From Mobula birostris (taxonomy: Eukaryota): 64,000 nucleotides of DNA. Below the pieces are notes generated by a model. It made no database searches. It saw only the letters and a program-made list of their open reading frames with translations, and was not told the origin of the DNA. How positions within the stretch are numbered: the stretch's first letter is position 1; the number at the start of each line of letters is the position of its first letter. The stretch lies in NCBI RefSeq assembly GCF_030028105.1, contig NC_092374.1:158062432-158126431 (forward strand), in the 5' to 3' direction. This document shows positions 17,717-58,489 of the stretch, piece after piece. A program made the position numbers and the translations under genes.

Positions 17717-17964
17717 GCCTAGATAATTCCAAGGAGGGGAGGCTGGTTTCCATGATGTTCTGAGCTGTACAGTATCTACAACTCTGTGCAGTATTTTGTG
17801 GTCACATGCAGAGCATTGCTATACCAAAACATTATGTACTCACAAACATGGGAAAATCTGTAGATGGTGGAAATGACGAAGGGTATCGACCTGAAATATC
17901 GACTATTTATTCTTTTCCATAGGTGCCGCCTGACCTGCTGAGTCCCTCCAGCATTTTGTGTGTG

Positions 17965-18255
17965 TGACATTGTTTACCCATATAGAATACTTCCTATGGT
18001 GCACTAATAAAAATTGGTAAGGGTCAGTGGAGACATGCCTCCCGAGGAGGTGGAGGCATTGATGAGCTTTTTTGGCCACGACATCTACGTGATTGGACCA
18101 GGATGGGCTATTGGTGATGTTCACACCCAGGAACTTGAAGTTCTCAACCCTCTCAGCCTCAACACCATTAATGTAGACCTGAGCACCTGCCACTTCTTGA
18201 ACTCAATGACCAGCTCTTTTGTTTTGCTGACATTGAGGGAAAGGTTGTTGTCATG
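17965..18255 (-). mobile_element. Rex1-type LINE fragment
   Basis: INGVEAERVENFKFLGVNITNSPSWSNHVDVVAKKAHQ. Confidence 0.8.
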
Positions 18256-21639: not shown

Positions 21640-22075
21640 ATGCACAAACGGCTGCAGATGCTGGAAGCTGCAGCAACACACAAGGTTCTGTAGGGTCTTG
21701 GCCTCAAAGCATCAATTGTTCATTTCCCTGCATAGATGCTGCCTGTCCTGATGAATTCCTTACGCTCAAAATTTCCAGCATCTGCAGAATCTCTTTGTGT
21801 TTATGAGATGCTGGAGGAATTCAGTGGGTCAAAAAGATTCATGGAGGGAAATGGACAGTCGACCACATTTGCCTATTATACCCTCCTCACTTGGATCTAC
21901 CTGTTGCTTGCCATCTCCTGCTCTACCCCTTCCCTCCCATCCTTTTTTACTGCTGTCTCTATTCTTTCTTTCAGTCCAGATGAAGGATCTTGACTCGAAA
22001 GGTTGACTGTCCATCTTCCTCCATGGATGCTGTCTGACCTGCAGACCTCCTCCAGCATCTTGTGTGTTGCTCTGT
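21640..22075. mobile_element. Two adjacent PLE-derived short elements with inverted ends
   Basis: tgcagatgctggaa/ttccagcatctgca pair. 21806-21864 is the reverse complement of about 22001-22059. Degenerate hammerhead at 21972-22009. Confidence 0.7.
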
Positions 22076-22800: not shown

Positions 22801-23549
22801 AAGCAACACTCACAACACGCTGGAGGAACTCAGCAGGTCGGGCAGCATCCGTGGAAAAGATCGGTCGGCGTTTCGGGCCGGAACTCTTCGTCAGGACTGT
22901 AGAGGGAAGGGGCAGAGGCCCTATAAAGAAGGTTGGGGGAGGGTGGGAAGGAGAAGGCTGGTAGGTTTCAGGTGAAAAACCAGTAAGGGGAAAGATAAAG
23001 GGGTGGGAGAGGGGAGGCAGGGAGGTGATAGGCAGGAAAGGTGAAGAAAGAATAGGGGAAAACACGATGGGTAGCAGGAGGCGGCGGAACCATGAGGGAG
23101 GTGATAGGCAGCTGGGGGAGGGGCAGAGTGACATAGGGATAGAGGAAGGGAGGGGGAGGGAATTACCCGAAGTTGGAGAATTCTTTGTTCATACCAAGGG
23201 GCTGGAGACTACCCAGACGGTATATGAGGTGTTGCTCCTCCAACCTGAGTTTAGCCTCATCATGGCAGTAGAGGAGGCCATGTATGGACATATCTGAATG
23301 GGAGTGGGTAGCAGCGTTGAAGTGGGTGGCTACGGGGAGATCCTGTCTGTTTTGGCGGACGGAGCGGAGGTGCTGGACGAAGTGGTCCCCCAATCTGCGT
23401 CGGGTTTTACCGATGTAGAGGAGGCCACACCGGGAGCACCGAACACAATAGATGACCCCAACAGATTCACAAGTGAAGTGTTGCCTCACTTGGAAGGACT
23501 GTTTGGGGCCCTGAATGGTGGCAAGAGAGGAGGTGTAGGGACAGGTCAC
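22801..23549 (-). mobile_element. Penelope-like element, 5'-truncated: GIY-YIG endonuclease C-terminus, purine/pyrimidine-skewed UTR and pLTR with a degenerate hammerhead
   Basis: ORF 23163..23549 VIYCVRCSRCGLLYIGKTRRRLGDHFVQH..VATHF..LEEQHLI..LQPLGMN. Hammerhead-like sequence at 22862-22899 on the minus strand. Confidence 0.92.
23163..23549 (-). pseudogene. PLE GIY-YIG endonuclease fragment
   Basis: VIY..C..C..YIG.T motif with conserved His and Glu residues. No RT or start context upstream. Confidence 0.85.
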
Positions 23550-27119: not shown

Positions 27120-27840
27120 TCGAAATTCAAAGTACAATTTTTTATCAGAGTACATAGATGTGATCACATATAGCCTGAGACACTTTTTCTGTGGCATACT
27201 TAGTAAATCTATAGAACAGTAACTGTAAACTGTAAACAAACTGTGCAAATGCAGATATAAATAAATAGCAAAAATAATGATAATGCAATAACAATATAAC
27301 AGTACTTAAATGAGTATAGCTATCACCTTTTGTTCAAGACCCTGATGGCTGAGAGGTCGTAACTGTTCTTGAACCTGATGGTGTGAATCCTGAGGCACCG
27401 GTACCTTCTACTTGAAGGCAGCAGTGAGAAGAGAGCCTGGCCTGGGAGGTGAGGATCTTTGAAGATGGATACTGCTTTTCTACGGTAATGTTTCATGTAG
27501 ATGTGCTCAAAGGTTGAGAGGGTTTTATCTGTGATGTACTGGGCCACATCCACTATCTTTTCCTCTCAAAGGCTTTGGTGTTCCTATTCCAGGCTGTAAT
27601 GTAGCCAGTAAGCACAGTTTCCACCACGCATCTATAGAAGTTTGGCAAGGGTTTCACTGACATGCTCAACCTCCACGGACTTCTGAGGAAGTAGAGATGC
27701 TGTTGTGCTTTCTTCACGATAATTATATGATGGGTCCAGGGCAGGTCCTCTGAGATAGTGACACCAAGAGATTTAAAGGTACTGACCCTCTCCACCTCTG
27801 ATCATCCGACGATTACTGGGTCATGGACCCCTGGTTTACC
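27120..27840 (-). mobile_element. Rex1-type LINE 3' part
   Basis: ORFs 27323..27553 and 27553..27795 (ERVSTFKSLGVTISEDLPW; PGQALFSLLPSSRRYR). Confidence 0.85.
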
Positions 27841-27905
27841 AATACTTGATGCAATACTTGTTCTTTCATCTTCTCAAGGACACAGACAGTCTTCCAGCTG
27901 AAGCA

Positions 27906-28073
27906 TAAACACAAAATACTCTGCAGATGCTGGGGTCAAAGCAACACTCACAACACACTGGAGGAACTCAGCAAGTCGGGCAGCATCTGTGGAAACGATC
28001 AGTCAATGTTGACCGATTGTTTCCACGGATGCTGCCCGACCTGCTGAGTTCCTCCATCATGTTGTGAGTGTTG
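27906..28073. mobile_element. PLE-derived mini fold-back element
   Basis: 67-bp inverted arms 27941-28007 and 28008-28074 with 8 mismatches. Perfect 15-bp TSD cttccagctgaagca (27891-27905 and 28074-28088). Confidence 0.9.
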
Positions 28074-28396
28074 CTTCCAGCTGAAGCAGCAATTCCCTTG
28101 CAGTTTATCCAATCCCATTCACTATATTTGGCATTAATAAGTGGATTCCTTCATGCTGGAGAAATCAAATGTTGATATGGTGATTGCTGTGTGGAACACC
28201 TACGTTCAGGGCTCAGTAGGTGGTTCTGAGCTTCTCCTACCTGCCACTTTAGTACTCAATCCCAGTCCCTCCCTAATTTATTGGTCTTTGATCTCATATA
28301 TTGTTACATTGAGGCCTAACATAAGGTTGAGGAACTGCACCTCATCTTCTGTCTCGGTACATTGCAGCCTTCTGAACTTAGCAATAAACTCTACTA

Positions 28397-28964
28397 CAGG
28401 GGTGGCGAACCTTTTTGAGAGTGTGTGCCCAAATTGGCGATAATCTTCCAACAGATTCTCTTGTGTGCCACGGTAATTTTGGGCAGAGATTATCATTGAT
28501 TAATGAATTAGTAACAATAATTATGGACTTACTAAAGGAAAAAAGATGAGTACTGTTACTTGTTTACTTGTTTTAATAATCTGTTCAAAATTATTAATAT
28601 TCTTTTAAAAGACGTGAAAAATAACATCATTTACAAGTAGTATTGTCAGTGTAACTGCTTACTTTCCAAATGCTGATGTGTACACTATGTCTGCAAGGAT
28701 TTGAAAATGTGTCATCCAACATTATATGTTTTTGCAACTGTCTGGCAGGCACCAAACCATATGAGACGTTTCCTGTGAAAACATCCCATTGCTCTGGAAT
28801 TGTAAAAAACTCATTGACTTTTATTTGAAGTAAAGATGATCATTATGTATCTTTTTATTATGATTGAGGTTTAAAGAATCAAGGGGGCAACACTGCATGC
28901 CGCATGCCAACAAATCTTTATGCATCCCATCTCAGGCTTGTGTGCCATAGCTTTGCCACCCCTG
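28397..28964. mobile_element. hAT MITE
   Basis: TIRs caggggtggcgaa / tttgccacccctg, AT-rich interior, degenerate TSD. Confidence 0.8.
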
Positions 28965-30514
28965 CTTTGCGACTTCCGGTAACTTGATTTCTCTGTCTGT
29001 ATCAGTTATTTATTTGTAATATTGGCTGAGATTATATGTTTCTTTTCCTTTTTATTTTATTTTAGTCTGGATGTGGAGAACATGCACAAGTGGATCTGCA
29101 GGATGTGTCTTCCTGCATTGCATTTTGCGACGCTGTTTTCTTTTGTCTGTGCTCTCACTCTCCTACTGCATGCACTCACTCATTGACCAGATAACCTTGT
29201 AGTTAAGCTTATAGTTGCAGGTAAGCTTATAGTTACCCTGGCTTTACCCTATCAGTGACATTACCCCAAACACCTTTCCTACAGATTAACAAGCCGTGTC
29301 TCTCTCCTTCTCAATTCTGATGAAGAGTCTTTGATCTGAAGCATCAACTCTGTTCTTTTTCAGCAGAAGTGGCCTGACCTGTTGAGTCCTTTCAGCATTT
29401 TTGGCTTTTATCTTAGGACAAAGTAGTCCACTTGATAGGCATCATATCTTTATTCTAACCACTGGATCTAACTATGTCTGGTACATGTTGGGTACGACAG
29501 CATTTTGGGAGAGACTTCACCAGGTGGACTAGAGGGGCTGACCACTACTTTCTCAAGGACAAGTAGAGATGGATAAGAAATGCCGGCCTTCATAGCAACA
29601 CCGAGATCCGGAAAATGTTTGAAAAATAGTTGTAGGAAAGAGGTGAAATGGAATGCAGCATATTTCAAAAATGTCCATGCACAGGCTAGATGATAAATTA
29701 CCTTTAATTCTTGTCGACTTTGCAAGACCTCGTTTGTGTAATAAATGCATAGAAATGAGGAATTGAATTTCCCCCGAGTACTGGTGTGAAATTGGTTTTC
29801 AGCAGTTTAAAGCACTTTCCTTAGCTGTTGTACTGCATAGCACAATGTGAGATTCAGACGTGGGGTGATGATTTGCCTACGGCTTCTCATTGGAGCCAAG
29901 TTGTTCTTAGAGCTGAATTGCACTGCTGCTGAGCGGCGTGTGCCATTGTTTACTGCATACTCGTGACATGAAAGGCAGCCCCTCACAGCGATGCCTTGTG
30001 AAGCCTTCTAATTCCTCTCTGGTTTGAATGCAGTCTTTTTATGATGCACATCTGCTTCCAAATGCAGAAATAGAGAAGGACAAAACTGGAAAGGCTTTGC
30101 GGCCCAAGTAATATTTGAGTTCTAAACAGCTCAAAACATTTTCTGCAAAGCTGCATGTAGTGGTATAATTAGGACTCAAAAATAAAACTGCAGATGTTGG
30201 AAATCTGACATGTTAGCTGTTTCTCTTACCACAAATCTTCTGGGTGTATGCCCTGAGTTCTTTCAGCATTTTCTGCTTTTAGTATAATTTGATCTTAGCT
30301 TCTTGGAATTCAGGAAAAGTGGTGATATAATTAGATCTAATTACAAAGGTATCTTACCCTCTTTGTAGTTTAGATAAGAAAAAGAGATCTTATTACAGCT
30401 TGCAAGATGATGAATGAGTGAAGGGAGAAAGATGGGGTTGAAAGAGTAAATACTGCTGGAATGTTTCACTTGGTGGGAATATCTAAAACTCTAGACATGG
30501 CTTTGGGTTATAAG

Positions 30515-31288
30515 ACCATAAGACCATAAGACAAAGGAGCAGAAGTGGGCCATTCGGCCCATCGAGTCTGCGCCGCCATTTTATCATGAGCAGATCCATT
30601 CTCCTATTTAGTCCCACTCCCCTGCCTTCTCACCATAACCTTTGATGCCCTGGCTACTCAGATACCTATCAATCTCTGCCTTAAATACACCCAATGATTT
30701 GACCTCCACTGCCTCTCGTGGCAACAAATTCCACAGATTCACCACCCTCTGGCTAAAAAAATCTCTTCGCATCTCTGTTCTGAATGGGCGCCCTTCAATC
30801 CTTAAGTCATGCCCTCTCGTACTAGACTCCCCCATCATGGGAAACAACTTTGCTACATCCACTCTGTCCATGCCTTTCAACATTCGAAATGTTTTTATGA
30901 GGTCCCCGCTCATTCTTCTAAACTCCAAGAGTACAGTCCAAGAGCGGACAAACATTCCTCATACGTTAACCCTCTCATTCCCAGAATCATTCTAGTGAAT
31001 CTTCTCTGAAGCCTCTCCAACATCAGCACGTCTTTTCTTAAATAAGGAGCCCAAAACGGCACACAGTACTCCAAGTGAGGTCTTACCAGCACCTTATAGA
31101 GCATCAACATCACATCCCTGCTCCTATACTCTATTCCTCTAGAAATGAATCCCAACATTGCATTCGCCTTCATCACCACCGACTCAACCTGGAGGTTAAC
31201 CTTAAGGGTATCCTGCACGAGGACTCCCAAGTCCCATTGTATCTCAGAACTTTGAATTCTCTCCCCATTTAAATAATAGTCTGCCTGC
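30515..31288 (-). mobile_element. Young CR1/HER1-type LINE 3' part inside an older CR1
   Basis: LYKVLVRPHLEYCVPFWAPYLRKD..FFSQRVVNLWNLLP. (TAAGACCA)n tail. TSD ttataag. Confidence 0.92.
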
Positions 31289-31450
31289 TTATAAGGTTAT
31301 GGGGTCCAATAATTGAGCCTGAGATGAAAAAACATTTTTTTTTTCAGTGTTGCTAAGTCTTTGGATTTTCTCAGAACCAGAATCAGATTGGTTATCACTG
31401 ACATATGACATGAATTTATTGTTTTATGGCAGCAGCTGCAAAAATAAGTA

Positions 31451-32131
31451 GGAGGAGGAGAAGATGGCGGCACGACGCAGCTTGCGCGGCCACTCCGGTG
31501 AATGATATCTGTAATCTGTCAAGTAGGGTGCTGTGCACAATCCTCATTTGATGGAGACAGACGTGAGAGAATGGAGGAACATCTGGAGAAACTTCTGAAA
31601 TGCCTTTTTCACTGCCGTTGTTACTGTGTGATCCTGAATCTCCGGAGGGAAAGGCCCCGAGTCCTTGGCTTTGCTTGTTGCTCAGCGGCTGGGACAGAGT
31701 CAAAGTGCTTGGCAGAGGTGGTGCTCGGTGCTCGATGTCGAAGGGCTGGTCAGACGCTCGAAGTTTTCAGACGGACTCAGAGTCGGCTGGGGTCGTGTGC
31801 TTCCAATGCATCAACTGTTGTCAGTGCTTGGAAGTTTATGGCAGAGAGAGTTTCTCCCTTCTGCCGCCTGCTATTGGGACTATCGGGAGTCAATCGGAAC
31901 TTTGAGACTTTTTTTTACCGTTCCCATGGTTTGGTCTTTATCAAATTATGGTATTGTTTTTCACTGCTGTAACTATACGTTATAATTATGTGGTCTTGCC
32001 AGTGTTAGTCTTTGGTTTGTCCTGTTTTTTTTGTGTGATATCACTCCGGAGGAACATTGTATGATTTCCTAATGCATGCATGCATTTCTAAATGACAATA
32101 AATGAGGACTGAGTGTCCTCATAATCTAATC
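31451..32131 (+). mobile_element. Non-coding retroposon with a YY1-type 5' motif, 3' hairpin and (TAATC)n tail
   Basis: Starts ggaggaggagAAGATGGCGgc. Ends aataaa-tgaggac tgagt gtcctca-taatctaatc. Comparatively CpG-rich. Confidence 0.65.
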
Positions 32132-32234
32132 AAATATAATAGTGAAAGAAATGAGGTAGTGGACCATTCAGAAATTTGATGTCGAGGAAGCTATTTCTGT
32201 ATCATTCAATATAGGTCTTCAGGCTTTCGTACCT

Positions 32235-32742
32235 CATAAATGGCTTCTGAGTGTATGTCATAGTCTTATGTTGCTGTAGCCCATCCACTTCAAGGTTTGA
32301 CATATTGTACATTCAGAGATGCTCTTCTGCACACCACTGTTGTAACGTGTGCTTATCTGAGTTACAGTCACCTTCCTGTCAGGGTGAACCAGTTTGGCCA
32401 TTCTTATCTGACCTCTCTCATTAACAAGGTGTTTTCTCACCCACAGAACTGCTGCCTACTCGATTTTTTTTTTGTTTAAGCTCTAGAGACTGTTGTGCTT
32501 GAAAATCCTAAAAGATCAGCAGTTTCTAAGATACTCAAAGCACCCCATCTGGCACCAACAATAAATCGACTGTCAGAGGCACTTAGATCACATTTCTTTC
32601 CCATTCTGATGTTTAGTCTAAACAGCAACTGAGCCTCTTGACTTTGTCAGCATGCTTTTATGTATTGAGTTGCTGCCATATGATTGGCTGATTAGATATT
32701 TGCATTAATGAGGAGGTGTACTAATAAGGTGGCCAGTGAGTG
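32235..32742 (-). mobile_element. Non-autonomous Tc1-family element
   Basis: ORF 32258..32440 GQIRMAKLVHPDRKVTVTQISTRYNSGVQKSISECT. TIR end ..taataaggtggccagtgagtg|TA. Confidence 0.85.
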
Positions 32743-33529
32743 TATATTGGTGACTCAGATGGACAGATTTTTGGGCAATTGAATTCTGGGGAATGGGTGG
32801 GGAAATGGTTTTGAGGCCACATTTGGATCAGCTGTGATGCTATTGAATAGCGAAGCAGGGGTAAGGGGCCACTATTTCTTATAGTTCTGTGAATTTTATT
32901 CCTGTTGCATCAGGCAGACAGAGAAAACGTTTCCTCTTATAAGACTGATTAAGATGAAACTTAGTGTATGACAGACTGGCAGATGTGTCTCAAAGGCATC
33001 ATTATGAGTGGTGTCATAAGTCTTCTATGTTTCTATGTTTAATGCATGAATTGTTAATTTGGTTTATTATTGTCACATGTGCTGGGATACAGTTGAAAAA
33101 CTTGTCTTGTACACCATCCATACAGATTAATTCATTAAAACTGTACATGGTTGAAGTAGTGCAAGATAAAATAATAGAGTGCAGATCAAAATGCTACAAT
33201 TGATATCAATTTTCAATAAAAGTAAATATAAATTTCAGCTGTGTTCAGTTACCAAAGCACTCTTTCAGATCTTACTTGAAGGTCCCTTGGGAAAGTATAG
33301 ACCTAAATCAATTTAGCTAGTTTAGTCACAGGTCCACACACTAAAACATTGGTTGGTTGCAATAGAACAAATTTGTTCAATATTAAGAAATAATATAAAT
33401 CCAACTTTAGTAAAAGGAGGTTCATGTGTAGCGATGTTCTCACAGTGTCATTCACCACATTATTATCAGTTGGTAGTTTTTACGGTTTATTTATCTTATA
33501 CAAGGTGTTAATGTGCTTTTAGAACATAA

Positions 33530-33990
33530 TTTCAAAGTTTCAAGGACATTTATTATCAAAGTATGTATACTTTATACAACCTTGAGATTGGTCTCCTTAC
33601 AGGCAGTCACAAAACAAAGAAACCTCAAAACAACCAATTAGAAAAAAGACTGTCAGACATGCAATGTGCAGAGAGAGTGAAAAAAACACAAATCGTGCAA
33701 ACAATGAAAGTAAGCAAATAGCTTCAGAGCTGAAGTTTTATGAAAGACACAAAGCCAGGCATCACTGCAGCTGGAGAAAGCCACAGCCTTTGCTTGCCAC
33801 AGAGCTGAGAAAGCGTTGCAGGACCACAGACATGAAGCAAGGCATCACTGCAGCCGAAGCAGGCCACGGCCCTGGTTCAGCACAGAGCTGAGTAAACGTC
33901 ATGGAGTGGTGAATGGAACCAGGCTGAGCTGGCCCTCATCTCGCCTCCGGTTCCGACACCCGGACCTGCAAGTACAGTGGGCCCTGCCAC
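33530..33990 (-). mobile_element. Non-coding retroposon family A, truncated
   Basis: Similar to 6345-7052 and 34980-35742. Confidence 0.6.
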
Positions 33991-34099
33991 TTCCTCAATT
34001 TTCTCTCCTATCCATTCTTGTATGTGTAGGTTCCAGAATTCCTTTGTTAAACCTCTCGGCTTCTTTCCTCCTCCCTTTAAGACATAGCTCTCACCAAGC

Positions 34100-34600
34100 C
34101 TTTGACTGCCATGCCCACAAAGTTGTGCCGAACACGTCCCTACCTTAGAAATTACTCGGGTTACCCATAGCCCTCTGTTTTTCTGAGCTCCATGTACCCA
34201 TCCAAAAGTCTCTTAAAAGACCCTGTTGTATCTGTCTCCACCACCATTGCCGGCAGCCCATTCCACGCACTCACCACTCTCTGTGTAAAAAACGTACCCC
34301 TGACATCTCCTCTGTACCTACTTCCAAGCACCTTAAACCTGTGCCCTCTTGTGTTAGCCATTTCAGCCCTGGGAAAAAAGCCTCTGACTATCCACACGAT
34401 CAATGCCTCTCATCATCTTATACACCTCTATCAGGTCACCTCTCATCCTCTGTCGCTCCAAGGAGAAAAGGCCAAATTCACTCAACCTGTTTTCATAAGG
34501 CATGCTCCCCAATCCAGGCAACATGCTTGTAAATCTCATCTGCACCCTTTTTATGGTTTCCACATCCTTCCTGTAGTGAGGCGACCAGAACTGAGCACTG
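34100..34600 (-). mobile_element. CR1-type LINE 3' part
   Basis: RVQMRFTSMLPGL..LFSLERQRMRGDLIEVYK and FFTQRVVSAWNGLP. Confidence 0.9.
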
Positions 34601-34619
34601 TTTTTCTATTTTTCATTAA

Positions 34620-34816
34620 CTTGCCATTCATTACATATGTGAGGTCATTTCTCAGATCTTCTCTGAGGTGTGCAGAGACCTGAGCATGGCCTGGAAATCT
34701 TTCCAGTGCCTTTTGAAATTTTCCTTTTGTGATGTCAGGATGGTGCTCAAAAGAAGAAAAAAAGGATTTTAGAAGTGTTTGGATTTTGAAATTTCGGATA
34801 AGGGATACTTAACCTG
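34620..34816 (-). mobile_element. pogo/Tigger-like (Tigger4/Zombi-type) terminal fragment
   Basis: Ends ..atttcggataagggatacttaacctg|TA, whose reverse complement is CAGGTTAAGTATCCCTTATCCGAAA. No partner TIR seen. Confidence 0.6.
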
Positions 34817-34979
34817 TATTCAAAAGGAGAACTGTAAATGATTAAGTAGTAGGCCACCAATGATTTTTAAAACGGAAGATTTTTAAATGTATTCACATAT
34901 TGCCAAGTCAAACATCTGTTGGGATTCTCAACTTGCCTTTGAAATGGATAACTTGCTATAATATTTCAGCTGTTAAGTA

Positions 34980-35742
34980 CAAATTTCAAAGTACATTTAT
35001 TATCAAAGTATAGACAATATACTGTGTACAACCTTGAAATTTGTCTTCTTACATGCAGCCATAAAAACAAAGATATCCATTAGAACCCATTAAAAAGGCT
35101 GTTTTAACACTCAATGTATGAAAAAAAGAACAAATCATATAAACAACAAAAAGTAAACAAGTAAAACTCAGAACTGAAGTTCATGAAGGAGATTCCACAG
35201 TAACAAAGCCATTTCATTGCTGCAGCCAGTCCAGGAGTCCGTTAATTGCAGGCTACAACCTCTGTTCAGCACAGGGACTAGTAAACCTTGCGAAGCAGCG
35301 GCCGGACACCGGCCCATCCCTCGCCTCTGGCCTCAACCCTCAACCCTTTCAATCTTGTCATGTGCTTAAATCATCCAAACATCGGCCTGTTCCTCACACT
35401 CTGGCCTGGGCCCTGCCACTTTAATGCGGCCCCAAGTCTGCTCCAGCAATGGCCAATCATTGGCTCGTTCCTCATTCTTAGACCTGGCCCTGCTGCCTCA
35501 ATTTGGCCCGTACCTGTTGTGCTGCCGCACTGCACCTTTGAGACTGCAGTTCACCAAGTCCTCCCCAACACTGCAAAAATGCTAGGTTATACAGGCGGTT
35601 CAGAAGCACAGCTCGGAAAGGGAAATTACAGGCTATTGATTGCAGTGATCGCTGTCCAGAAAAAAGTGTGATTAAAGGGGTAGTTAGTGGATTCGTTTGC
35701 TGCCAGTAAAATGTCACTGTGTCTCACTAGCACCATCTTAAA
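34980..35742 (-). mobile_element. Non-coding retroposon family A
   Basis: Tail ttcaaagtacatttattatcaaagt. The 5' end reads AAGATGGTGC on the minus strand (35730-35739). Confidence 0.65.
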
Positions 35743-36029
35743 TCTCAAACACTAAGTCTAGACCAAGTATTAGTATTGGTATTTGTCCATTATTGTCACA
35801 CGTTCCAAAATATAGTGAAAAGATTTTTGTTTGCATGCAATCCAGACAAATCATTCCATTGCTCTGTGCATTGAGGTAGTAAAAGGGAGAAGAGAATGTG
35901 GAATATGGTATTACAGAGTAAGTGCAGTGCAGGCAGACAAATAAATAGGTTGGAAGATAGGAAGTTCATCTCTCAGGTCTTTTCTAGAGTTTGATAACAG
36001 TGATATCAAACGAAGAAAGTAAAATCTGA

Positions 36030-38214
36030 TGGAGCAGTATTTAAGTGGAGTAAGGGAAATTACAGTGGTATGAGAGAGGACTTGGCCAAAGTGAATTGGA
36101 AAGAGCTGCTGGCAGGGATGTCAACAAAGCACAATGGCATGCGTTCCTGGGAAAAATGAGGAAGATGTATTCCAAAAATGAAGAAATACTCAAATGGAAA
36201 AATAGTACAACCATGGCTGACAAGGGAAGTCAAAGCTATTGTAAAAGCAAAAGAAAGGGCGTACAATAAAGCAAAAATTAGTGGGAAGATAGAGGATTGG
36301 AAAGTTTTTAAAAACCTACAGAGAGAAACTAAAAATATCATTGGAAGGGAAAAGATGAAATTTGAAAGCAAGCTAGCAAATAATAACAAAAGTGGATAGT
36401 AAAAGTTTCTTCGAGTATGTTAAAAATAAATGAGATATGAGAGTGGATATAGGACTGCTAGAAAATGAGGCAGGAGAAATAATAGTGGGGGACAAACAGA
36501 TGGCCTATGAACTAAATGAGTATTTTGCGTCAGTCTTCGCTGTGGAAGACACTAGCAATATACTTGATGCTGTAGTTATGTGAAGGAAGATAAGTGGGCA
36601 CAGTTACTGTTACAAGAGAGAAGGTGCTCAAAAAGCTGAAAGACCTAAAGGTACGTAAGTCAACCGGACCAGAGGAACTGCACCCTAGGGTTCTGAAAGA
36701 GGTAGGATTAGAGATTGTGGTGGCATTAGAAAATCATTGGACTCTGGCATGGTGCCAGACGACTGGAAAATTGCAAATGTTACTCAACTCTTTAAGAAAG
36801 GAGGAAGGCAGCAGAAAGAAAATTATAGACCAATTAGCCTGGCCTCAATGGTTGGGAAGGTGTTAGAGTACTTGTTAAGGATGAGGTGATGGAGTACTTG
36901 GTGACACAGGACAACGTAGTACAAAGTCAGCATGGTTTCCTTCAGGGGAAATCCTGCCTGATGAACTTGTTGGAATTCTTTGTGGAGATTACAAGTAGGA
37001 TAGATAAAGGGGATGCAGTGGATGTTGTATATCTGGATTTTCAGAAGACCTTTGACAAGGTGCCACACATGAGGCTGCTTACCAAGTTAAGAGTCCATGG
37101 TATTACAGGAAAGTTACTAACATGGTTAGAGCATTGGCTGATTGGTAGGAGGCAGTGAGTGGGAATAAAAGTATCCTTTTCTGGTTGGCTGCCAGTGACT
37201 AGTGGTGTTCTGCAGGGGTCGGTGTTGGGATCATTTCTTTTTATGCTGTATATAAATGATTTAGATGATGGAATAGATGGCTCTGTTGCCGAATTTGCAG
37301 ATGGTACAATGATTGGTGGAGGGGCAGGTAGTGTTGAGGAAACAGGTAGGGTGCAGAAGGACTTAGACAGATTAGGAGAATGGGCAAGAAAGTGGTAAAT
37401 GGAATACAATGTTGGAAAATGCATGGTCATGCACTTTGGTAGTAGAAATAAATGTGTGGACTATTTTCTAAACTGGGAGAAAATACAGGAATCTGAGATG
37501 CAAAGGGACTTGGGAGTCCTTGTGCAGAACACCCTAAAAGTCAACTTGCAGGTTAAGTTGGTGGTGAGGAAGGCAAATGGCATGTTAGTATTCATTTCAA
37601 GAGCAAGGATGTAATGGTGAAGCTTTCTGAGGCACCGGTGAGGCCTCACCTTAAGTATTATGAACAGTTTTGGGCCCCTTATCTTAGAAAAGATGTGCTG
37701 GCATTGGAGAGGGTCCAGAAGGGGTTCACAAGGATGATTCCAGGAATGAAAGGGTTATCATAAAAGGAACATTTGATAGCTCTGGGTCTGTACTCGCTGG
37801 AATTCAGAAGGATGTGGGGGAGATCTCATTGAAATCTTTTGAATGTTGAAAGGCCTAGACAGAGTAGATGTCAAAAGGGTGTTTCCCATGGTGGGAGAGT
37901 CTAGGACAAGAGGGCACAGCCTCAGGATAGAGGGGTGCCCTTTCAAAACAGAGATGCAAAGAAGAATCTTTAGACAAAGCATGGTGAATTTGTGGAATTT
38001 GTTGCCACATACAGCTGTGAAGGCCATGTTGTTTGGTGTATTTAAGGCAGAGATTGATAGGTTCTTGATTGGACATGGCATCAAAGGTTACGGGGAGAAG
38101 ACCGGGAAGTGGGGTTGAGGAGCAGATAGAAAAAAAGGATCAGCCATGATTGAATGGCAGAGCAGACTCGATGGGCCAGATGGCCTAATTCTGCTGCTAT
38201 GTCTTATGGTCTTA
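36030..38214 (+). mobile_element. CR1/HER1-type LINE, about 2.2 kb, RT pseudogene
   Basis: SQHGFLQGKSCLMNLLEFF..VDVVYLDFQKTFDKVPH; SGVLQGSVLG..YINDL..FADGT. Tail tcttatggtctta. Confidence 0.95.
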
Positions 38215-38734
38215 CGATATTGAAGCTATTTTTGAGCTTGGTGTTATGTGCCCTGAAGTTTTTGTGACTTCTTCCTGACAGAAGTTGGGATCCCCTTTAT
38301 ACCTTGAATTTTGGCAAACCAGATGGCAACAGCTTTGTCCCTCTTATAAAGAAAGCTATGGCTCATGTGTAGCATCCATAGGTGCTGCCTGATCTGTCGA
38401 GTTCCTCCAGCATTTTGTGTTTGTTGCTCTGGATTTCCATTATCTGCGGAATCACTTGTGTCTGTTCATAATCGTACTGTTCCTGTGGTCTATTTAGTCT
38501 GCCTGTGTTTGTTGATCTAAAATGCCTCTTGGTTAATGTGAACTTTCATTTTGGAAGTTTCATCCTCATTTCTAAGTTCTTCCATGATCTCCTGCGTTTG
38601 CTCTCTTTGTACTCTTGTCCTGAATTATTTATTAAACTCATAGCCAATTTTATTTGTTGCCATCTCGTTGAAAGTCTTTGGGATGGTCCAAAACATTGGG
38701 GCACGATGATCTAATCAGATTGTTTTCTAGATTA

Positions 38735-39620
38735 ATGAACATAAAATGCTGGAGGAACTCGAGTTGTCAGGCAGCATCTATGGAGGGGAATAAACAGCCA
38801 ACGTTTCAGGTTGAGACCCTTCATCAGGTTGGAAAAGAAGGGGGCAGAAGCCAGAATACGGTGGGAGGAGGGGTTGTGATACAAGCTGGCTGATGATTGG
38901 GGAGACTAGGTGATGGGAAGTGGGGTGGGTGGGGGAGGTGTATGATGGAAGAAGCTAATGTAACTTTTGCTTTGGCTAGTAGCCTAATATAGGGGGTGAT
39001 AGCCCCCAGCCCGGCCAAACTTAAGAAATCTCGTTCGGGTGGATGCTGCGCGATATGTCTCCTGTTACAAATCAGTACCACGAAATAACAACCAGTACAC
39101 AATATGCGATTAAACGATTGAGCTTTATAATTCTTAATTTGACTATATAGTTAGTAAAGAAACAAAAAAAGGAAAAGGGCCCATTCTCATGAAACAGTCT
39201 AATGTGCAAATGTTGGAGCTCACTGATAAGCTGGTCGTCCACCATCGACCTCCCCTGATCGTCGCCGATCTTCAGACCCTCGCTCCAAGTCCACTCTGTC
39301 CAACTCACTCCATTCACGTCTTCTCCCCTCATCTCTCCTTAGCAAAAGACCTCGAAAATCTCATCCAGACTCACAAGAAAGAACAGCATTTCTCTCATTG
39401 GATAGCCCCGGCATTCCAAAACCCCGTTAAGTCTAGTCCAAACCCAAATAGTACTGTTACAGAGAAACCATTACATTAGCAGTGAAACATTACGGAGAGG
39501 TCATTACATTAGCAGTGAAACCTTACAGCATGTTACACTAGGTAGTCATAGATGGAAGGGGTGAAGTGCTGAAGAAGAAGGAATGTAATAAGAGATGACA
39601 GTGGACATTGGAAGAAAGTG
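38735..39620 (-). mobile_element. PLE-derived short element (hammerhead core at 38795-38832) split by a solo LTR
   Basis: Minus strand reads CTGATGA AGG gtctcaa CCT GAAA CGTT. The core is intact but stem I is disrupted. Confidence 0.7.
38959..39537. mobile_element. Solo LTR (579 bp)
   Basis: TGTAAC...GTTACA termini. 4-bp TSD-like ctaa/ctag. Internal tandem cattacattagcagtgaaac x2. Confidence 0.75.
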
Positions 39621-41064
39621 TTTTCTCAATCAATCCCCTCAAAGTTACACATGAAAGCATCAAAGCCCACTCATTAATTATCAGGGAAGTTACTTACATT
39701 GCAATGAGGATGGCTAATGGGTATTGCCAGTGGAGTGGTGCAGTGTATCTTCCATGGTATGCAAGTTTCTCAACCAGCTTCACACAACCGTCAGAAGAGT
39801 GTCAAATTAGTGGTGACATTCTGTCATTTAGATGGGAATGTGTTTTTAATGAGAGTGATAGTAAGCTGTTTTTGTAACACTTTAATTATCCTCAGTGAAA
39901 TTTCAAGCAGTAAAAGGTCCCTGGATATCTCAGATGATCAGTTTGGAGACAGGTGGAGACAGGAGTTCAGTGTTGGAGGGGGTAATGGAGATTGGGCAAT
40001 GGGTCTTGGAGGGAGTTGAAAATTAGGAAATGGGGCCCTGAAGAGAAAGATGTAGAATAGGCAATGGGTCTTGGAGGGAGAGGTGGAGAAAGGAATTGGG
40101 TGTTGGAGGGAGAGATGAAGATGTTGCATACAGCTTACACTTATGCAGCATCTTTACTGAAGGGATGGAGGGTGAGATGGAGATGGGCAAGAACATGCCA
40201 GAGGGATGAATGGAGCTTGGAAAAGGATGTTCAGTGGGAGAGGTGGGGACTGTGGATGAGGTATCAGACAGAGATGGGAATTATGAAATAGGGCTTGACT
40301 GGACAGGAAAAGGTGAAAATAGATTTCTCTGCTTTCTTGCTTCTTGAAATTTATTGTACAACAGTTGCAATCAAATAAAGATTCTGAAGTACAGGAGACC
40401 CAGCTGCAAAGGGTAAACCCAATGCCAAGTTTAGATGTGAATTGGCTCAATGCCAAGTAGTTTGGTCACATGATCATTCCCCCTGAAATGTTCACTTCTA
40501 GAGTTGGCAGTCTGAAGTCCAAACTGTAATGTTACAGCACGCACTCCCTCTCTGCTTCACTTTTCACTGGGTGAGTGGCCTTGCATTTGACATTGGCGAG
40601 CTGCTATTTCAATACCATGGGCTGTGGGGCCTTTTCATTTTGAGGAGCAGAGTGCAAGGTTACACTGGAAAAATAACACATACAACCTTTCAAAAGGGAA
40701 GCCTTCAGCCTGTCCTCACCAGCTGTTACACTCATTCCTGCTGATCTTCCCCTGAATCCATTAAGAAAGGAAATGAATCTGTCCTCGTACACTGAACAAC
40801 TGAGCAACAGCCATTATCAGGCACAACGCAAAGAAATGAAGGTTGAACTGGCCCATGTGCACTGTCAGGCAGCTTTTTATTAATTACTGAAAATGGGGAT
40901 CCACAGGAGGTGAGGATGAGGAAGGAATAAATTAAACTCATAGTCAAAATGGACTTTATTGCTACTTGTACATGTATACACAGATGCAATGAAAATCGTA
41001 CTTGTAACAGAATCACAGACACAGCTCATTGTATAAGCAATATTCACAGGAAAAAAGACGTAAA

Positions 41065-41240
41065 CATGAAAATGGCGGAGGAACTCAGCAGGTCAGGCAG
41101 CACCTATCAAGGGAATAAACAGTTGATGTTCCAGGCCAAGATCCTTCATCAGAACTTGACAACGCTGCCTGACTTGCTGAGTTCCTCCAGTGTTTTGCAT
41201 ATTGCTCGGGACTTCCAGCATCTGGAGAATCTTTTGTGCT
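41065..41240. mobile_element. PLE-derived fold-back element with a degenerate hammerhead
   Basis: ggaggaactcagcaggtcaggcagc ... gctgcctgacttgctgagttcctcc inverted pair. Confidence 0.7.
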
Positions 41241-41271
41241 CATAAATTACACAAGAAAGAACATACTGTTT

Positions 41272-41535
41272 GGCACGGTAGTGTACTGGTTAGTACAACA
41301 CTTTACAGCAGAGGCAACCTGGGTTCAATTCCTGTTGCTGCCTGTAAGAGCTTGTACATTGCCTTCGTGGCCGCATGGATTTCCTCCAGGTGCTCCAGTT
41401 TCTTCCCAGTCCAAAGACATACTGGTTGGTAGGCTAATTGGTCAATGTAAATTGTCTCATGTTTGGGCTAGTATTAAAATTGGGGGAATTGCTGGGTGGT
41501 GTGACTTGAAAGGCTGGAAGGGCCTATTCCACATA
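41272..41535 (+). mobile_element. V-SINE (HE1-like), near full length
   Basis: A-box ggtagtgtactggtt, B-box gggttcaattcc, V domain ggatttcctccaggtgctccagtttcttccc..ccaaagac, and a CR1-like tail. Confidence 0.85.
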
Positions 41536-42250: not shown

Positions 42251-43980
42251 CACCTCAGTGGCACTCGCAAGTGGAATCTCATGAGGTAACAGGATACAGG
42301 ATAAAGCAATGAAGGCTGATTTTTACGCTCAAAGCTGTGGACACACCTGCAGAGTGAATTTGGACAAAATACATTTTCATAGACACTAATAGACATTCTT
42401 TATTGCTTTCAGTTAATACAAGTGTCAAGAGTCAAACATGTGCAAGAGCAGATGTCTGCATAGCAGAGATGATGGGCAGCCATATTGACTTCAAGTTCAT
42501 GGCAACTGAAATGTGGAAAAAAATCTATCATCCAGCCCTACAATGTATTGTGTAACAACCTCAATATACTTAAAAGTATGCTAACAACACAAAGTGGGAA
42601 ATACTGATACCATACAATTGTGGTTGTGTTTTATTACTATATCCTCAATCAAAAGCAATAACAATAGCATTACACCCCGCAGAGGGCCTTTAAAACAGTA
42701 ACAACATCCCAAGTGTTTCCTCAGCACTGACATTGAAGGAAATTTGGCAACAGGTATCTTAAGGAGATACCTTGAACAGGTGTTGAAATAAAGAGGCAGG
42801 CGTTTAAGGAATGCTGTGAAGAAAAAAAGGAGCTGATGAAGTTTGAGAGGCTCAGGAAGAACCTCTCAAATTCTTCATACCTCCTTTCTTCCTTTGCAGG
42901 AAGAGAGCTGGTAAAGAAACTGAGAACATTTGGTAGTGTACAGGAGGTTGGAATTGGAAGGTGCAGCAAAAAGACTGGCCTGGAGGAGGTTGCAGAGATA
43001 TGGAGGGATGGGAAAACTAGGTTGAGAATTTTAAAACAGAGCTGTTCCCTCCAGATATTGAATGACAATGAAGTAGAAGAAGGAAGAAAATCGGATGAGA
43101 GTTAGTTCTTGAAATAGAACTCTGTGCACGTGATGGTGAGACCGAAATGGTGTGTTGCCGCCCAAGTGCCTGGGTCAGGGACGCTGTGGATTGGGTCCAC
43201 AACATTCTAAAGGGGGAGGTGAGCAGCCAGAAGTCTTGTTACATATTGGTAACAATGACATGGGTAGGAAAAGCGAGCTGGTCCTGAAGAGAGAAGCTAG
43301 GGTTGCTAGGTAGAAAGTTGAAAACCAGGACTAATCTCTGGATTGCTGCCTGTACCATGCACCAGTGAGGGTCAGAATAGGATGAATTGGCAGATGAATG
43401 TGTGGCCAAGAAACTGGTGCAGGGGAAAGGGTTTTAGATTTCTGGATCATCGAGATCTCTTCTGGGGGAGGTAGAACGTGTACAAAAGGGAACTGATATC
43501 CGAGTGGACAGGTTTACTAGAACTTTTGGGGTGGGTTTAGACTCATTTGGCAGGGGAATGGGAACTGGAGTGAAAGGATTGAGGATAGGGCTGTTGGTTT
43601 ACAAGATAGTGTATAGTGAGACTGTCAGGAAGGACAGGCAGATGATAGGGCAAAGTTGTGATCAGTGGTATGAGTTGCAGTGTAGAAGGGGGACAGAATT
43701 GAAGAGTGTTGGATACAGAATTAAAAATTTTATATTTGAATGCATGCAGTATACAGAATAAAGTAGATGATCTTATAGCACAGTTGGAGATTGGCAGGTA
43801 TGACTTTGGGGGAATCACTAAGTAGTGGCTTAAAGAAGATTATATCTAGGAGCTTAATATCAAAGGATACACTTTGTTTGGAAAGGACAGGCAAGTAAGC
43901 AGGATAGACAAAGGAGTGGATGTGTACTTGGATTTTCAGAAGGCGTTTGGCAAGGTGCCGCACATGAGACTGCTTAACAA

Positions 43981-45278
43981 CAAAATACTCTGCAGATGCT
44001 GGGGTCAAAGCAACACGCACAACATGCTGGAGGAACTCAGCAGGTCGGGCGGTATCCGTGGAAACGAACAGTCAACATTTTGGGCCGAGACCCTTCGTCA
44101 GGACTGAAGAGGGAAAGAGGGTGGGGGGAGGGTGGGAAGGAGAAGGTCGGTAGGTTCCAGGTGAAAAACCAGTAAGGGGAAAGATCAAGGGGTGGAGGAG
44201 GGGAAGCAGGGAGAGGATAGGCAGGAAAGGTGAAGAAGGAATAGGGGAAAGCACAATGGGTAGTAGAAGGAGGCAGAACCTTGAGGGAGGTGATGGGCAG
44301 CTGGATGAGGAGGCAGAGTGAAACTGGCATGGGGGAAGGGAGGGGGAGGGGGAGGGAATTACCGGAAGTTGGAGAATTCAACGCTCATGCCAAGGGGCTG
44401 GAGACTACCCAGACGGTATATGAGGTGTTACTCCTCCAACCTGAGTTTGGCCTCATCATGACAGAAGTGGAGGCCATGTATGGACATATCTGAATGGGAA
44501 TGTGAAGCAGAGTTGAAGTGGGTGGCAACGGGGATATCCAGTATTGTGGCGGACGGAGCGGAGGTGCTCGACGAAGCGGTCCCCCAATCTGCATTGGGTC
44601 TCACCAATGTAGAGGAGTCTGTTGGGGTCATCTATTGCATCTGCTGCTCTCAGTGCGGCCTCCTCTACATCGGTGAGACCTGTCGCAGATTGGGGGACCA
44701 CTTCGTCGAGCACTTCCGCTCCGTCTGCCACAACAGACAGGATCTCCCGGTTGCCACCAACTTCAACTCTGCTTCACATTCCCATTCGGGTATGTCCATA
44801 CATGGCCTCCGCTACTGCCATGATGAGGCCAAACTCAGGTTGGAGGAGCAACACCTCATATACCGTCTGGGTAGTCTCCAGCCCCTTGGTATGAACATCG
44901 AATTCTCCAACTTCTGGTAATTCCCTCCCCGTCCCTTCCCCCACCCCATTTTCACTCTGCCCCCTCCTCCAGCTGCCTATCACCTCCCTCATGGTTCTGC
45001 CCCCGTCTACTACCCATTGTGCTTTCCCCTATTCCTTCTTCACCTTTCCTGCCTATCACCTCCCTGCTTCCCCTTCCCCACCCCTTTATCTTTCCCCTTA
45101 CTGGTTTTTCACCTGGAACCTACCAGCCTTCTCCTTCCCACCCTCCCCCCACCTTCTTTATAGGGCCTCTGCCCCTTCCCTCTACAGTCCTGACGAAGGG
45201 TCTCGGCCCGAAACGTTGACTGATCGTTTCCACGGATGCTGCCCGACCTGCTGAGTTTCTCCAGCGTGTTGTGTGAGT
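43981..45278. mobile_element. Head-to-head inverted Penelope-like element (about 600-bp arms)
   Basis: Arms about 44014-44617 and 44660-45278 with a 42-nt spacer. GIY-YIG remnants on both strands. 11-bp TSD ctgcttaacaa (43970-43980 and 45279-45289). Confidence 0.93.
45185..45222 (+). ncRNA. Minimal type I hammerhead ribozyme (PLE type), core intact
   Basis: CAGTC-CTGACGA-a-GGG tctcgg CCC-GAAA-CGTT^GACTG. Stem I CAGTC/GACTG is perfectly paired and stem III is the palindrome ACGT. Confidence 0.85.
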
Positions 45279-48189
45279 CTGCTTAACAATATAAGAGCCC
45301 ATGGTATTACAGGAAGGATACTAGCATAGATAGAGCATTGGCTAATTGGCAGGAGGCAAAGAGTAGGAATAAAGAGTAGAATTGGCTGCCAGTGACTAGT
45401 GGTATTCCACAGGGGTTGGAATTGAGACCGTTTCTCTTTACGTTGTATGTCAGTGATTTGGATGATGTAATTGTTGGCTTTGTGGCCAAGTTTGCAGATG
45501 ATAGGAAGATATGTAGAGGTACAGGCAGCGTTGAGGAAGCAGGGAGGCTGCAGAAGGACTTGGACAGATTAGGAGAATGGGCAAAGAAGTGGCAAATGGA
45601 ATACGGTGTTGGGAAGTATATGGTCATGCACTTTGGTAGAAGGAACAAAATTATAGACTACTTTCTAAATAGGGAGAAAATTCAAAAATCCTTGTGCAAG
45701 ATTCCCTAAAGGTTAATTTGCAGTTTGAGTAGGTGGTGAGGAAGGTAAATACGTTAGCATTCATTTCACAAGGTCTTGAATATAAAAGCAAGGATGTAAT
45801 GGTGAGGATTTATAAGGCACTGATGAGGCCTCATTTGGAGTATTGTGAGCAGTTTTGGGCCTCTTATTTAAGAAAGGGTGTGCTGACATTGGAGAGGGTT
45901 CAAATGAGGTTCACGAGAATGATTCTGGGAATTAATAGCTTACTGTATAAGGAGCGAATGGTGGCTCTGGGCCTTTATTCACTGCAATTTGGAAGAATGA
46001 GGGAGGGATGTCATTGAAATCTGTCAAACGTTGAAAGGCCTAGATATAGTGAATATGGAGAGGATGTTTCCTATGGTGAGGTAATCTAGGACAAGATTAA
46101 TGGGCACAGGCGACTGTGGGGGGGGGGGATCAGGCCATCAAGTGTATTTAAGTTATAGGTTCTTGATTAGTCAGGGTGCAAAAGGTTATGGGGAGAAGGC
46201 AGAAGAATTGGGTTCAGAGGGTAATGGATCAGCCATGATGAAATGGCAGAGCAAACTTAATAGACCGAATGGTCCATTTCTGCTCCTATGTCTTATAGTC
46301 TTAAATAAAAGGGCCACAGAAAGAAGGTGAATTGCGACTTTTGTAAAGAGCTGGTGTGAGATTGATGGCTAAATGGGCTTCATACCTGTGACCATTCTGT
46401 GATTCTGTGATTGGTGAGGAACCAAAAAATCTGGATGAAGCTCAATTCAATGGATGGGTGAGAAAAGAAATGTAGGAACAGCAAGTGATTAGAGTTGTAG
46501 AATTTGACAAATCTGTAGCACTGAAGGGTCAGCTGTTTGAAAGAGCAGGAGTGAGAGTTCCAAGCACATACTGGCTTTTGTTCAGAGCCCTGTATTTTCC
46601 TGATCCAGTTCTGAGCCATTACTTAGAGAATCTGACACAAGAGACTGCAGATGTTGGAATCTGGAGCAACAAACAGCACGCTGGAGGAGCTCAGTGGGTG
46701 GAGCAGCATCTGTGTGAGGAAAGGAATTGCCAATGTTTGTGGTGAGAACCTTGCATTAGGACTTAAAGTCTCCGCTTCTCCTGCCTGTCCTGATCCCTAA
46801 AAAACTGTCAGTAATGAGTTGAGATTAACTCATTAGAAGCTTTTAAGGTCGAAGCAGATAAACTTTTAAAAGATTGTGGGTTTGAGCAGGATAAGGTTTG
46901 GTACAGAGGAGGAGTTGAAAGGAGGGGTAGATTAGCCATGATCACATTGAATAGTTAGGTAGGCTTGAGGAGCCCAATAGTTGAATTCTACTTTCCTGTG
47001 TTTTCATCATCTTGACATTACAACATTTGAGCTGAGATCCAACCAATTGTTAAAAATAGACCTCTGCTTCTCATTTCTGTTTTTCTATCTGTAAATCCAA
47101 GTAACCCACACCAAATGTTTTAGGAGTAGCTTCTTCCCCTTACCATCAGATTTCTGAACTGTCCCTGAACCCATGAACACTACCTCATTATTCCTTTTCT
47201 GCTCTATTTATTTATTTTTTTGTAACTTATAGTAATTTTTATGTCTTGCACTGTACTGCTGCCACAAAACAAAACTATTGCACAACATATATCAGAATTA
47301 ATAAACCTCAACCTGATCCATGAACTTTTATAACCATCTTAGCAACATGTCCTACCACCAGAGCAATTGCGTTATTGAATTGCAAGGCATCTTTACTCAT
47401 GTACACTTTTTCAGATTGTGTCACTCACAGTATATTGTCATTACAAGTTTCTTGTATACTGCATTACCTAAGCTTTTTCTGCTTTGGATACAATCTGCCA
47501 TTTGTTTTCTCATTTCACCACCTATCTGTGCACTCTTGAAGTTTCCTCATCATTGCTGTGTTAAGATGTTTTATGTCAGATTTTAATATGATACAGCCAG
47601 CATTTATCAAGGAGGGTGGGCAGTCTTTATTGTAAATCTGACTGAATAATTGTTGCTTTCTCTTAACACCCAACTTTCCACTTCCCTACAAAATTTATGT
47701 GTACTTCATGCATGCTGCTTTTAATAGGAGTTTGTATTGTACTTCTCTGGTGTGCCATCTTAGGTAGAGAAAGGCAGCTTCATATGGTCTCTTGTTTTAT
47801 GAGCTTAGAAAGTAATTGCTAAATGCAATTTCGGTGCTCTCCTGCCCTTGCAGCTGCTGCTGTCTATGGTTCGTTTGTCAAGGTCGCCTCTTGTAGCTTT
47901 TGTGAAACTTCTGTTCCCCCAATCTTCCATCTGGTTGATCTGCATACTGGCAGACACTCATTGACCTTCAGATGCCATTGCACCTGCAGAATCAGTCCCC
48001 GTGTTGTCTGGCTGAACATTGCACTTGAATTCTTATTCAAAGTGTTCATGAGAATATGGTGACTTTCGATTCCAGAATCCAATTCTCTCATGGATCTTGA
48101 AAGGAGAAATGACAGTGACCGAATTTTCAGGAACACTTGTCATTCTTCTTCACTCATTCACACTCATTGGGCAGAGTGACGGGGTCGAA

Positions 48190-57822: not shown

Positions 57823-58027
57823 TATTTTTGAGGTGTGATGTCTGCATTTCCACCTATCTGAGTGTTCAACTGTAACAACATCATTGTATGCAAATTGGCT
57901 GGGAATTGCACTGCTTGCAATCTTCAAATTCACTGTAATATTAAAAATAAAATAACCTCCTCTAATGGATAATGACTGTACCACTTGTTTATCTTGGGCA
58001 CACATCAACAGACTCCTGTCTAATCTC

Positions 58028-58203
58028 AAACACGAGGAATTCTGCAGATGCTGGAAATTCAAGCACCACACATCAAAGTTGCTGGTGAACGCAGCAGGCC
58101 AGGCAGCATCTCTAGGAAGAGGTACAGTCGACGTTGACTGTATCTCTTCCTAGAGATGCTGCCTGGCCTGCTGCGTTCACCAGCAACTTTGATGTGTGGT
58201 TCT
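58028..58203. mobile_element. PLE-derived mini fold-back element (near-perfect palindrome)
   Basis: 68-bp arms 58065-58132 and 58133-58200 with 2 mismatches. 11-bp TSD tgtctaatctc (58017-58027 and 58204-58214). Confidence 0.92.
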
Positions 58204-58489
58204 TGTCTAATCTCGCTTGTATTTCTGGTTAGCTGTCATACTACAGCTGACGACTGATTCTCAGAAGCTGATACAAAACAAACTGCACAAACTACTTATT
58301 GGTAAGGCAGACAATGCTGACAGAACCTCACATTTTCTGCTCTATAGTTACCATATCCAACATCAATCTTAATTCATACCGTAAATCCTTAATCTTTTTT
58401 TAAAATATAGATCCTGCTTTTATAGGTTGATTTTGTTCAGAAGTTAGAAAATACACAAAATCCATTCAACTTGGTAACCATGGCCATTG

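Follow-up and report, generated by a model that had tools for sequence, protein, structure and literature searches.

In the available text of the papers that describe them, typical PLE insertions comprise an inverted, 5′-truncated copy with a tail of 30–40 bp, often at one end (Craig et al., 2021, PMC8557442); a tail on one inverted pLTR, TSDs of 8–10 bp and many palindromes at head-to-head junctions have been described (Arkhipova et al., 2013, PMC3846280), as have a repeat of 34–37 bp and terminal inverted repeats whose size varies (Schostak et al., 2008, PMC2377424). The one-sided PLE tail of 30–40 nt is already published (PMC8557442, PMC3846280, PMC11167929), and the palindromic nature of hammerhead stem III is linked there to dimer formation (PMC4209133, PMC6765202). 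More recently, the study of the Anolis carolinensis Poseidon element (Frangieh et al., 2024, PMC11167929) reported, in its available sections, that the purified PLE protein nicks and extends both strands, that RT begins at two internal sites downstream of the hammerhead, which delimit the tail, that the protein is a predicted dimer and that an element with a dead ribozyme inserts equally well. Those sections do not follow second-strand synthesis or joining, do not mention mini fold-backs and still describe the late steps of PLE integration as unvalidated (PMC11167929); because of this, minimal mini products are useful as a class. The published PLE work compared here demonstrates the joining step for no PLE, and a literature search of titles and abstract openings, with most subscription journals outside its coverage, returned no mini fold-backs joined at a hammerhead palindrome.

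The insert described here lies in a 64,000-nt stretch of DNA, from a genome that resembles a cartilaginous fish genome, analysed as a whole and called the window below; the coordinates of its features are collected in Table 1. Signed positions are counted from the cut in the parent hammerhead, which we take to fall after 45217 by the standard hammerhead rule. Three things can be read directly from the locus: a staggered target of 15 bp, two head-to-head pLTR ends, which begin at about +99 and at about +63 to +66, and a join at −6 to −1.

Table 1. Features of the insert, its host and the copies used for comparison.
Feature	Position	Strand	Remarks
Left TSD copy, 15 bp	27891..27905	.	identical 15-mers; single copy at empty site, organism G
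One-sided tail extension, pLTR +99 to +67 from predicted cut, RNA sense minus	27906..27938	-	matches outer end of 43981 arm
Left arm, pLTR +66 to +1	27939..28004	-	3 differences/56 from subfamily majority, 2 at CpG
Common 6-nt centre AATGTT, decayed stem-III palindrome AACGTT, positions −6 to −1	28005..28010	.	parent 45212-45217
Right arm, pLTR +1 to +63	28011..28073	+	4 differences/56 from majority, 2 at CpG
Right TSD copy, 15 bp	28074..28088	.	identical 15-mers
Host: decayed GIY-YIG endonuclease region of older PLE, split by insert just upstream of GIY-YIG core	27874..28392	+	
Comparison: 1.3-kb head-to-head insertion, insert's own subfamily, TSD 15/16, junction in endonuclease region	43965..45289	.	
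Comparison: mini fold-back of other subfamily, 173-bp insert, TSD 13/14, excess 37 nt, same centre	58014..58214	.	
Minimal type I hammerhead of parent subfamily, motif intact, cut predicted after 45217	45185..45222	+	motif definition PMC4209133

The anatomy proposed in the original prediction is borne out by measurement. The claimed 168-bp insert with a perfect 15-bp TSD is found at 27906–28073 between two identical 15-mers (27891–27905 and 28074–28088), a pair that scores 15 in a flank-repeat scan, in which 150 random window positions gave a mean of 2.9 and a best score of 9. The inverted arms (27939–28006 and 28009–28076), claimed at 67 bp, measure 68 nt and are 90% complementary, the final 3 nt of the right arm falling within the right TSD, whose first 3 nt additionally match pLTR +64 to +66. 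The centre, whose position rests on the window assembly (none of the listed contigs of organisms A and B spans it), falls between 28007 and 28008, the left side measuring 102 nt and the right side 66 nt; the resulting excess of 36 nt agrees with the one-sided extension of about 35 nt that had been noted. The insert can be written as an antisense arm (+99 to −6) and a sense arm (−6 to +63 or +66) that have six bases in common, and where the insert has AATGTT the parent copy carries AACGTT (45212–45217), as had been proposed, a difference compatible with one CpG transition. The predicted RNA fold reaches −129 kcal/mol (z −17), a value equalled by none of 200 shuffles. A fold-back artefact of sequencing is made less likely by the arms of the insert (27906–28073), which mismatch at 7 of 63 positions. 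In the window, a degenerate pattern of the junction matches only at this centre and at 58125–58140, in each case on both strands; chance alone would give 0.11 matches.

The relation of the insert to the hammerhead is partial. The parent resembles the minimal hammerheads of metazoan PLEs, as far as the available text describes them (Cervera and de la Pena, 2014, PMC4209133), in being of the minimal type I with a palindromic helix III, whereas the insert retains only the stem-III palindrome and the 3′ strand of stem I. The hammerhead core CUGANGA/GAAA is absent on both strands of both mini inserts (27906 and 58028), no Rfam hammerhead was found among the 8 window matches at E up to 1, and the insert cannot be a ribozyme. 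The description of the element as “hammerhead-centred” is correct in that its centre is the stem-III palindrome of the motif, and loose in so far as neither strand has the catalytic core. The junction is that palindrome, 3 nt upstream of the predicted cut, and not the cut site itself. The insert is well preserved and dead, and shows no ORF, no ribozyme core and no sign of a host function.

Other identities were rejected on the sequence comparisons made here. MITEs have terminal inverted repeats at both ends, are related to DNA transposons and bear a short, superfamily-typical TSD; in the insert the inverted repeat ends 33 nt short of the left end, homology is to a PLE pLTR and the TSD has 15 bp. 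As a microRNA precursor the insert gave a generic hairpin match to mir-1271 at 44 bits against a gathering score of 80.5, and all Rfam matches to microRNA families stayed below their gathering scores. In public collections searched for related loci, viral contigs gave 20 matches to a gapped pattern, all unrelated chance matches on inspection, and none to a stricter pattern, while metagenome scans gave 0 and 2 matches, the latter two being unrelated GC-rich sequence. Non-LTR retrozymes (bioRxiv 10.64898/2026.07.22.740005) are likewise short, non-coding, pLTR-related vertebrate sequences, but in the available text they have a hammerhead and form direct tandem arrays, whereas the insert is a single inverted unit with no core.

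The host sequence is an older PLE, interrupted in its endonuclease region as originally stated. Joined to each other, the flanks of the insert align over about 340 nt with the endonuclease region of the younger PLE copy 22801–23545, with a score of 74 against a mean of 25 and a maximum of 40 in 200 shuffles, and the right flank matches a PLE endonuclease region in tblastn (E 8e-11). In four runs the right flank is covered at close to single-copy depth, depth not being taken here as copy number. According to PMC6765202 (available text), PLEs tend to land within or beside other PLEs. As for a host gene, no Pfam match was obtained in the 26 of 88 long frames picked as not obviously repeat-derived.

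Contigs of four of the 24 listed public runs (organisms A, B, D and G) were aligned to the 1-kb stretch 27500–28500, to which 27,185 to 45,811 contigs per run aligned; the list includes no RNA run with the sequence, which bears on expression in neither direction. Both filled junctions are found in organism A with no differences (27774–27929 and 28039–28436) and in organism B, where they show 2 and 10 differences. In organism G, a related species, a contig of 513 nt runs from 27723–27890 straight into 28074–28433; this empty site with one target copy proves the insertion. In organism D a 425-nt contig covers 28074–28426 with 71 nt left over, and the left flank shows the same depth value; from the leftover and the matching depth, this locus is probably empty too. 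The right flank differs from the window at 10 of 455 positions in B, 25 of 354 in D and 35 of 355 in G, and this divergence, taken with the filled and empty states, places the insertion after the split from G and before the separation of A and B. As a marker scored by presence or absence, the insert unites A and B and separates them from G.

The parent subfamily is represented by copies at 22801–23545 (minus strand) and 44618–45273 (plus strand), in which the end of an ORF is followed first by a spacer rich in pyrimidines, then by a hammerhead motif of the minimal type I and by about 66 or 99 nt of downstream sequence; the arms of the insert are 89–94% identical to 22801, 43981 and 45284. The linked ORF gives a weak Pfam GIY-YIG match (E 0.0037, below the cut-off), and its first Atlas match is GIY-YIG (0.96), with CxxC within the core. 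Judged on sequence, the ends of the insert are homologous to a pLTR behind a C-terminal GIY-YIG with two core cysteines, as expected of an endonuclease-bearing PLE, and a minimal hammerhead motif is present in the pLTR of the parent (45185–45222) and absent from the insert. The 36-nt excess, the 15-bp TSD and the empty orthologous site are those of an inverted, 5′-truncated copy with a tail of 30–40 bp and a TSD. Every PLE copy found in the window is truncated within or after the endonuclease region. Among family contigs that cease to align near the centre, most continue into a normal hammerhead (about 820–1190 per loose-end row).

To examine the origin of the insert within this subfamily, 16 window arms (70 columns) were placed in a maximum-likelihood tree, with the mini group named before the tree was seen. 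Both 27906 arms group with 22801 and the two arms of 43981–45273 (98/98), ordinary PLE ends of the subfamily and the assignment made in the original prediction, and both 58028 arms stand separately (100/99). An arm phylogeny had been suggested as a check; on the window arms, a single clade of the four mini arms is rejected (AU test on 16 rows and 70 columns, p-AU 0.00075). Compared over 56 positions with the majority of three other young arms, the 27906 arms have no common derived change: their separate 3 and 4 changes, none of them common, fit arms that were copied from an ordinary pLTR and decayed separately. The tree supports formation of the 27906 insert independently of 58028, and with it repeated formation. 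Of the claimed recurrent mechanism, the independence from 58028 holds (p-AU 0.00075), whereas a special mechanism does not follow, asymmetry and palindromes being already known PLE features.

Other copies in the window bear on the same point. The insertion 43981–45273 has a long left and a short right end, and 41063–41238 ends at about +53 and +94 with its junction at −32/+24; both are as one-sided as the insert and join elsewhere, and the asymmetry does not support a special mechanism. At 17844–17966 a 31-nt antisense tail (25/31 identical to the 58028 tail) is followed directly by a sense arm from −27; the flanking repeat of this copy (11/14) is not above background, as was the case for 9 of the 12 boundary pairs tried in TSD searches. 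All five clear two-armed copies of the window (27906, 58028, 43981, 41063 and 17844; the cluster 21642–22074 is excluded from the count) pair a long with a short end, and two of the five join at the palindrome. Outside the minis, one of ten inner arm ends lies at the palindrome (−7) and none at +1, with two units of 21642–22074 included and one end estimated by hand. In the other runs, head-to-head contigs join at other positions, for example +28/+32, +28/+10, +32/+1 and +73/about −8, in listings that cover 15 of the 293 joints and 12 of the 79 joint-filler rows.

We put at roughly 60% the probability that the insert, now dead, was left by a single integration event of an endonuclease-bearing PLE, in which overlapping twin-primed cDNAs annealed at the palindrome. 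The PLE protein would nick both target strands 15 bp apart, and each 3′ end would prime a cDNA on uncleaved PLE RNA, one at an outer and one at an inner RT start site, a difference that would produce the 36-nt tail. Both cDNAs would halt early, probably on entering the hammerhead fold, and their 3′ ends would anneal through the self-complementary hexamer before flaps were trimmed and gaps filled; ribozyme cleavage would not be required. The join would fall on AACGTT because the cDNAs need a complementary stretch and this is the first 6-nt palindrome that they reach: within 698 nt of the parent, the short end has only three such palindromes upstream of it (−315, −245 and −3), and AACGTT is the nearest. 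A pause of the RT at the G+C-rich stem II, directly past AACGTT, is plausible. An uncleaved template is indicated by the centre, which holds six bases from upstream of the cut that would be missing from a cleaved one.

Overlapping twin priming is favoured by the long and short ends, constant in the five window copies while the junctions vary. A forced pairing of long and short is opposed by the Anolis PLE, for which the available text describes no difference between the strands in the use of the start sites (PMC11167929), and annealing is opposed by the 43981 junction, where microhomology is little (0–3 nt). The start region of Poseidon is given as AC-rich (PMC11167929, available text), whereas the ends of the insert are GU-rich on the hammerhead strand. 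With complex PLE insertions the insert has in common head-to-head pLTRs, a 36-nt tail, a TSD, a junction palindrome and a PLE target; it differs in lacking an ORF and a direct pLTR, in its length of 168 bp and in the ending of both arms at one hammerhead hexamer. On an ordinary reading it is the short extreme of the known pattern of an inverted copy plus tail. In L1 twin priming, which the proposed course resembles and which was reportedly described by Ostertag and Kazazian in 2001, both nicks are said to prime cDNA, giving an inversion and a microhomology join with the TSD kept. The two L1 cDNAs cover non-overlapping parts of the RNA, whereas those of the insert overlap almost completely.

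A further step would be that the stem-III palindrome, a known dimerisation motif, acts in integration itself as the meeting point of the two cDNAs of a dimeric particle, started from two RT sites. We consider this doubtful; if it were true, the ribozyme fold would have a cleavage-independent role in resolving insertions, and mini fold-backs would be the genomic footprint of the unsolved PLE joining step.

Instead of annealing, ribozyme cleavage might fix the junction, one RT running off cleaved RNA at +1 and its product being joined to a cDNA that reads 6 nt further. Each of the two mini junctions admits a reading in which an antisense arm to −6 meets a sense arm from +1, the 58028 centre matches an antisense parent reading of a GUC-type core without mutation, and in two joint-filler rows of organism B, which may be one locus, the sense arm begins at about +1 (12 of 79 rows listed). 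This would, however, require one cleaved and one uncleaved template and still a fall on the palindrome, and among the 10 arm ends of the other five two-armed units of the window none is at +1 and one is at −7. By the available accounts, moreover, ribozyme mutants in Anolis are unchanged in insertion and no RNA-seq reads end at the cut (PMC11167929), and minimal hammerheads cleave poorly in vitro (PMC4209133). We hold a junction defined by the cut to be unlikely.

Self-priming, in which a single strand folds at the palindrome and copies itself, has been proposed for rotifer PLEs on an antisense template from the abundant palindromes at head-to-head junctions (PMC3846280, available text), and the centre of the insert is indeed palindromic. 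A 6-nt palindrome nevertheless leaves no loop for an intramolecular hairpin, and the fold predicted for a single cDNA of the parent uses another 6-bp stem, closed by a 9-nt loop, so that the junction would lie elsewhere; self-priming therefore fits less well. By itself it also leaves the fixed short end and the non-overlapping 17844 copy unexplained, and we find it quite unlikely.

A non-autonomous mini family, with one master hairpin per subfamily copied by PLE proteins in the manner of a SINE, a MITE or a retrozyme, appears improbable to the same degree. A clade is rejected across the two subfamilies, but the single mini element per subfamily in the window is compatible with one master each, a paralogous contig of organism D aligns across the centre of the insert (27906–28054, with 24 differences and 6 gap letters), and non-autonomous elements derived from pLTRs exist according to the available descriptions (PMC8557442; bioRxiv 10.64898/2026.07.22.740005). 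The arms of the insert, on the other hand, have no common derived change, and there is neither the core nor the tandem array of retrozymes; the same ends recur on copies with other junctions, and a 66-bp hairpin would be expected to sequester the RT start sites.

Deletions that stabilise a palindrome usually break central symmetry and do not create it, which counts against a later collapse of a long head-to-head insertion through loss of its inner arms by slippage between two copies of AACGTT, direct repeats by virtue of the palindromic hexamer. That is very improbable: although long head-to-head copies of the subfamily exist, the geometry of slippage yields exactly this junction and microhomology-mediated deletions disable many rotifer PLE copies (PMC3846280, available text), the parent has 45 inverted 6-mer pairs, so that AACGTT would not be singled out, and no long allele is seen among the listed contigs, the centre being unbridged in organism B.

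As an object the insert matters little, being one dead insert among very many related sequences. Its parts (inverted pLTR, one-sided tail and palindromic junctions) are already known for PLEs, so that novelty is low and the remaining value is the mechanistic point on joining, which makes two testable predictions: long ends should pair strictly with short ones, and junctions should peak at the palindrome.

Several minor observations concern the related copies. The arms of 43981–45273 are only about 87.5% alike, while one of them is 90.4% identical to the separate copy 22801; a test for two templates in this 1.3-kb copy gave private changes of 22 vs 12 outside CpG (p = 0.12) and 32 vs 18 in all (p = 0.065), neither significant, with the excess in the left arm. 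The host sequence of 43965–45289 is a LINE remnant. The old copy at 17829–17980 has a sense arm from −27 to about +62, and its arms are non-overlapping, as would be expected if twin priming had used a single RNA. The cluster 21642–22074 consists of old PLE end fragments, four or five in number, whose orientation alternates, and it has no clear TSD; it is not a simple long/short pair and may represent a nested event or long/long plus short/short. At 14173–14203 (20/31) and 30174–30204 (22/31) the antisense tail has isolated weak matches, possibly very old tail-only remnants. In the young subfamily (45210–45230), bases −8 to −3 can pair with +8 to +13 in an alternative stem, which would compete with the hammerhead fold.

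At the short ends of the three TSD-bounded copies (28074–28076, 45274–45278 and 58201–58206) the first bases of the target resemble the next bases of the element, exactly over 3 nt at 28074, hinting at a possible homology-assisted priming at the inner start site; in the Anolis PLE the RT is described as starting without target homology (PMC11167929, available text), whereas the right junction of the insert has these 3 nt. The duplicated target 27891–27905 is itself nearly palindromic around a CAGCTG core, which is not the case for the other two TSDs.

The window also contains a separate 75-bp hairpin (8772–8846) with 30-nt arms that are 87% complementary; it partly matches 47231–47307, is unmatched to PLE ends and is possibly a small DNA-transposon derivative. 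A remnant of a Tc1/Sleeping Beauty-type transposase lies at 54826–55152 (Pfam HTH_SB, E 4e-7; HTH_Tnp_Tc3_2, E 3e-6). Finally, C at 28014 accounts for about 45% of the aligned depth in organisms A and B against 1–3% in D and G, which suggests a lineage-specific PLE variant. This base creates an A–C mismatch in stem I of the hammerhead, and the two arms of the insert might come from two PLE variants, although CpG decay accounts for the difference equally well.
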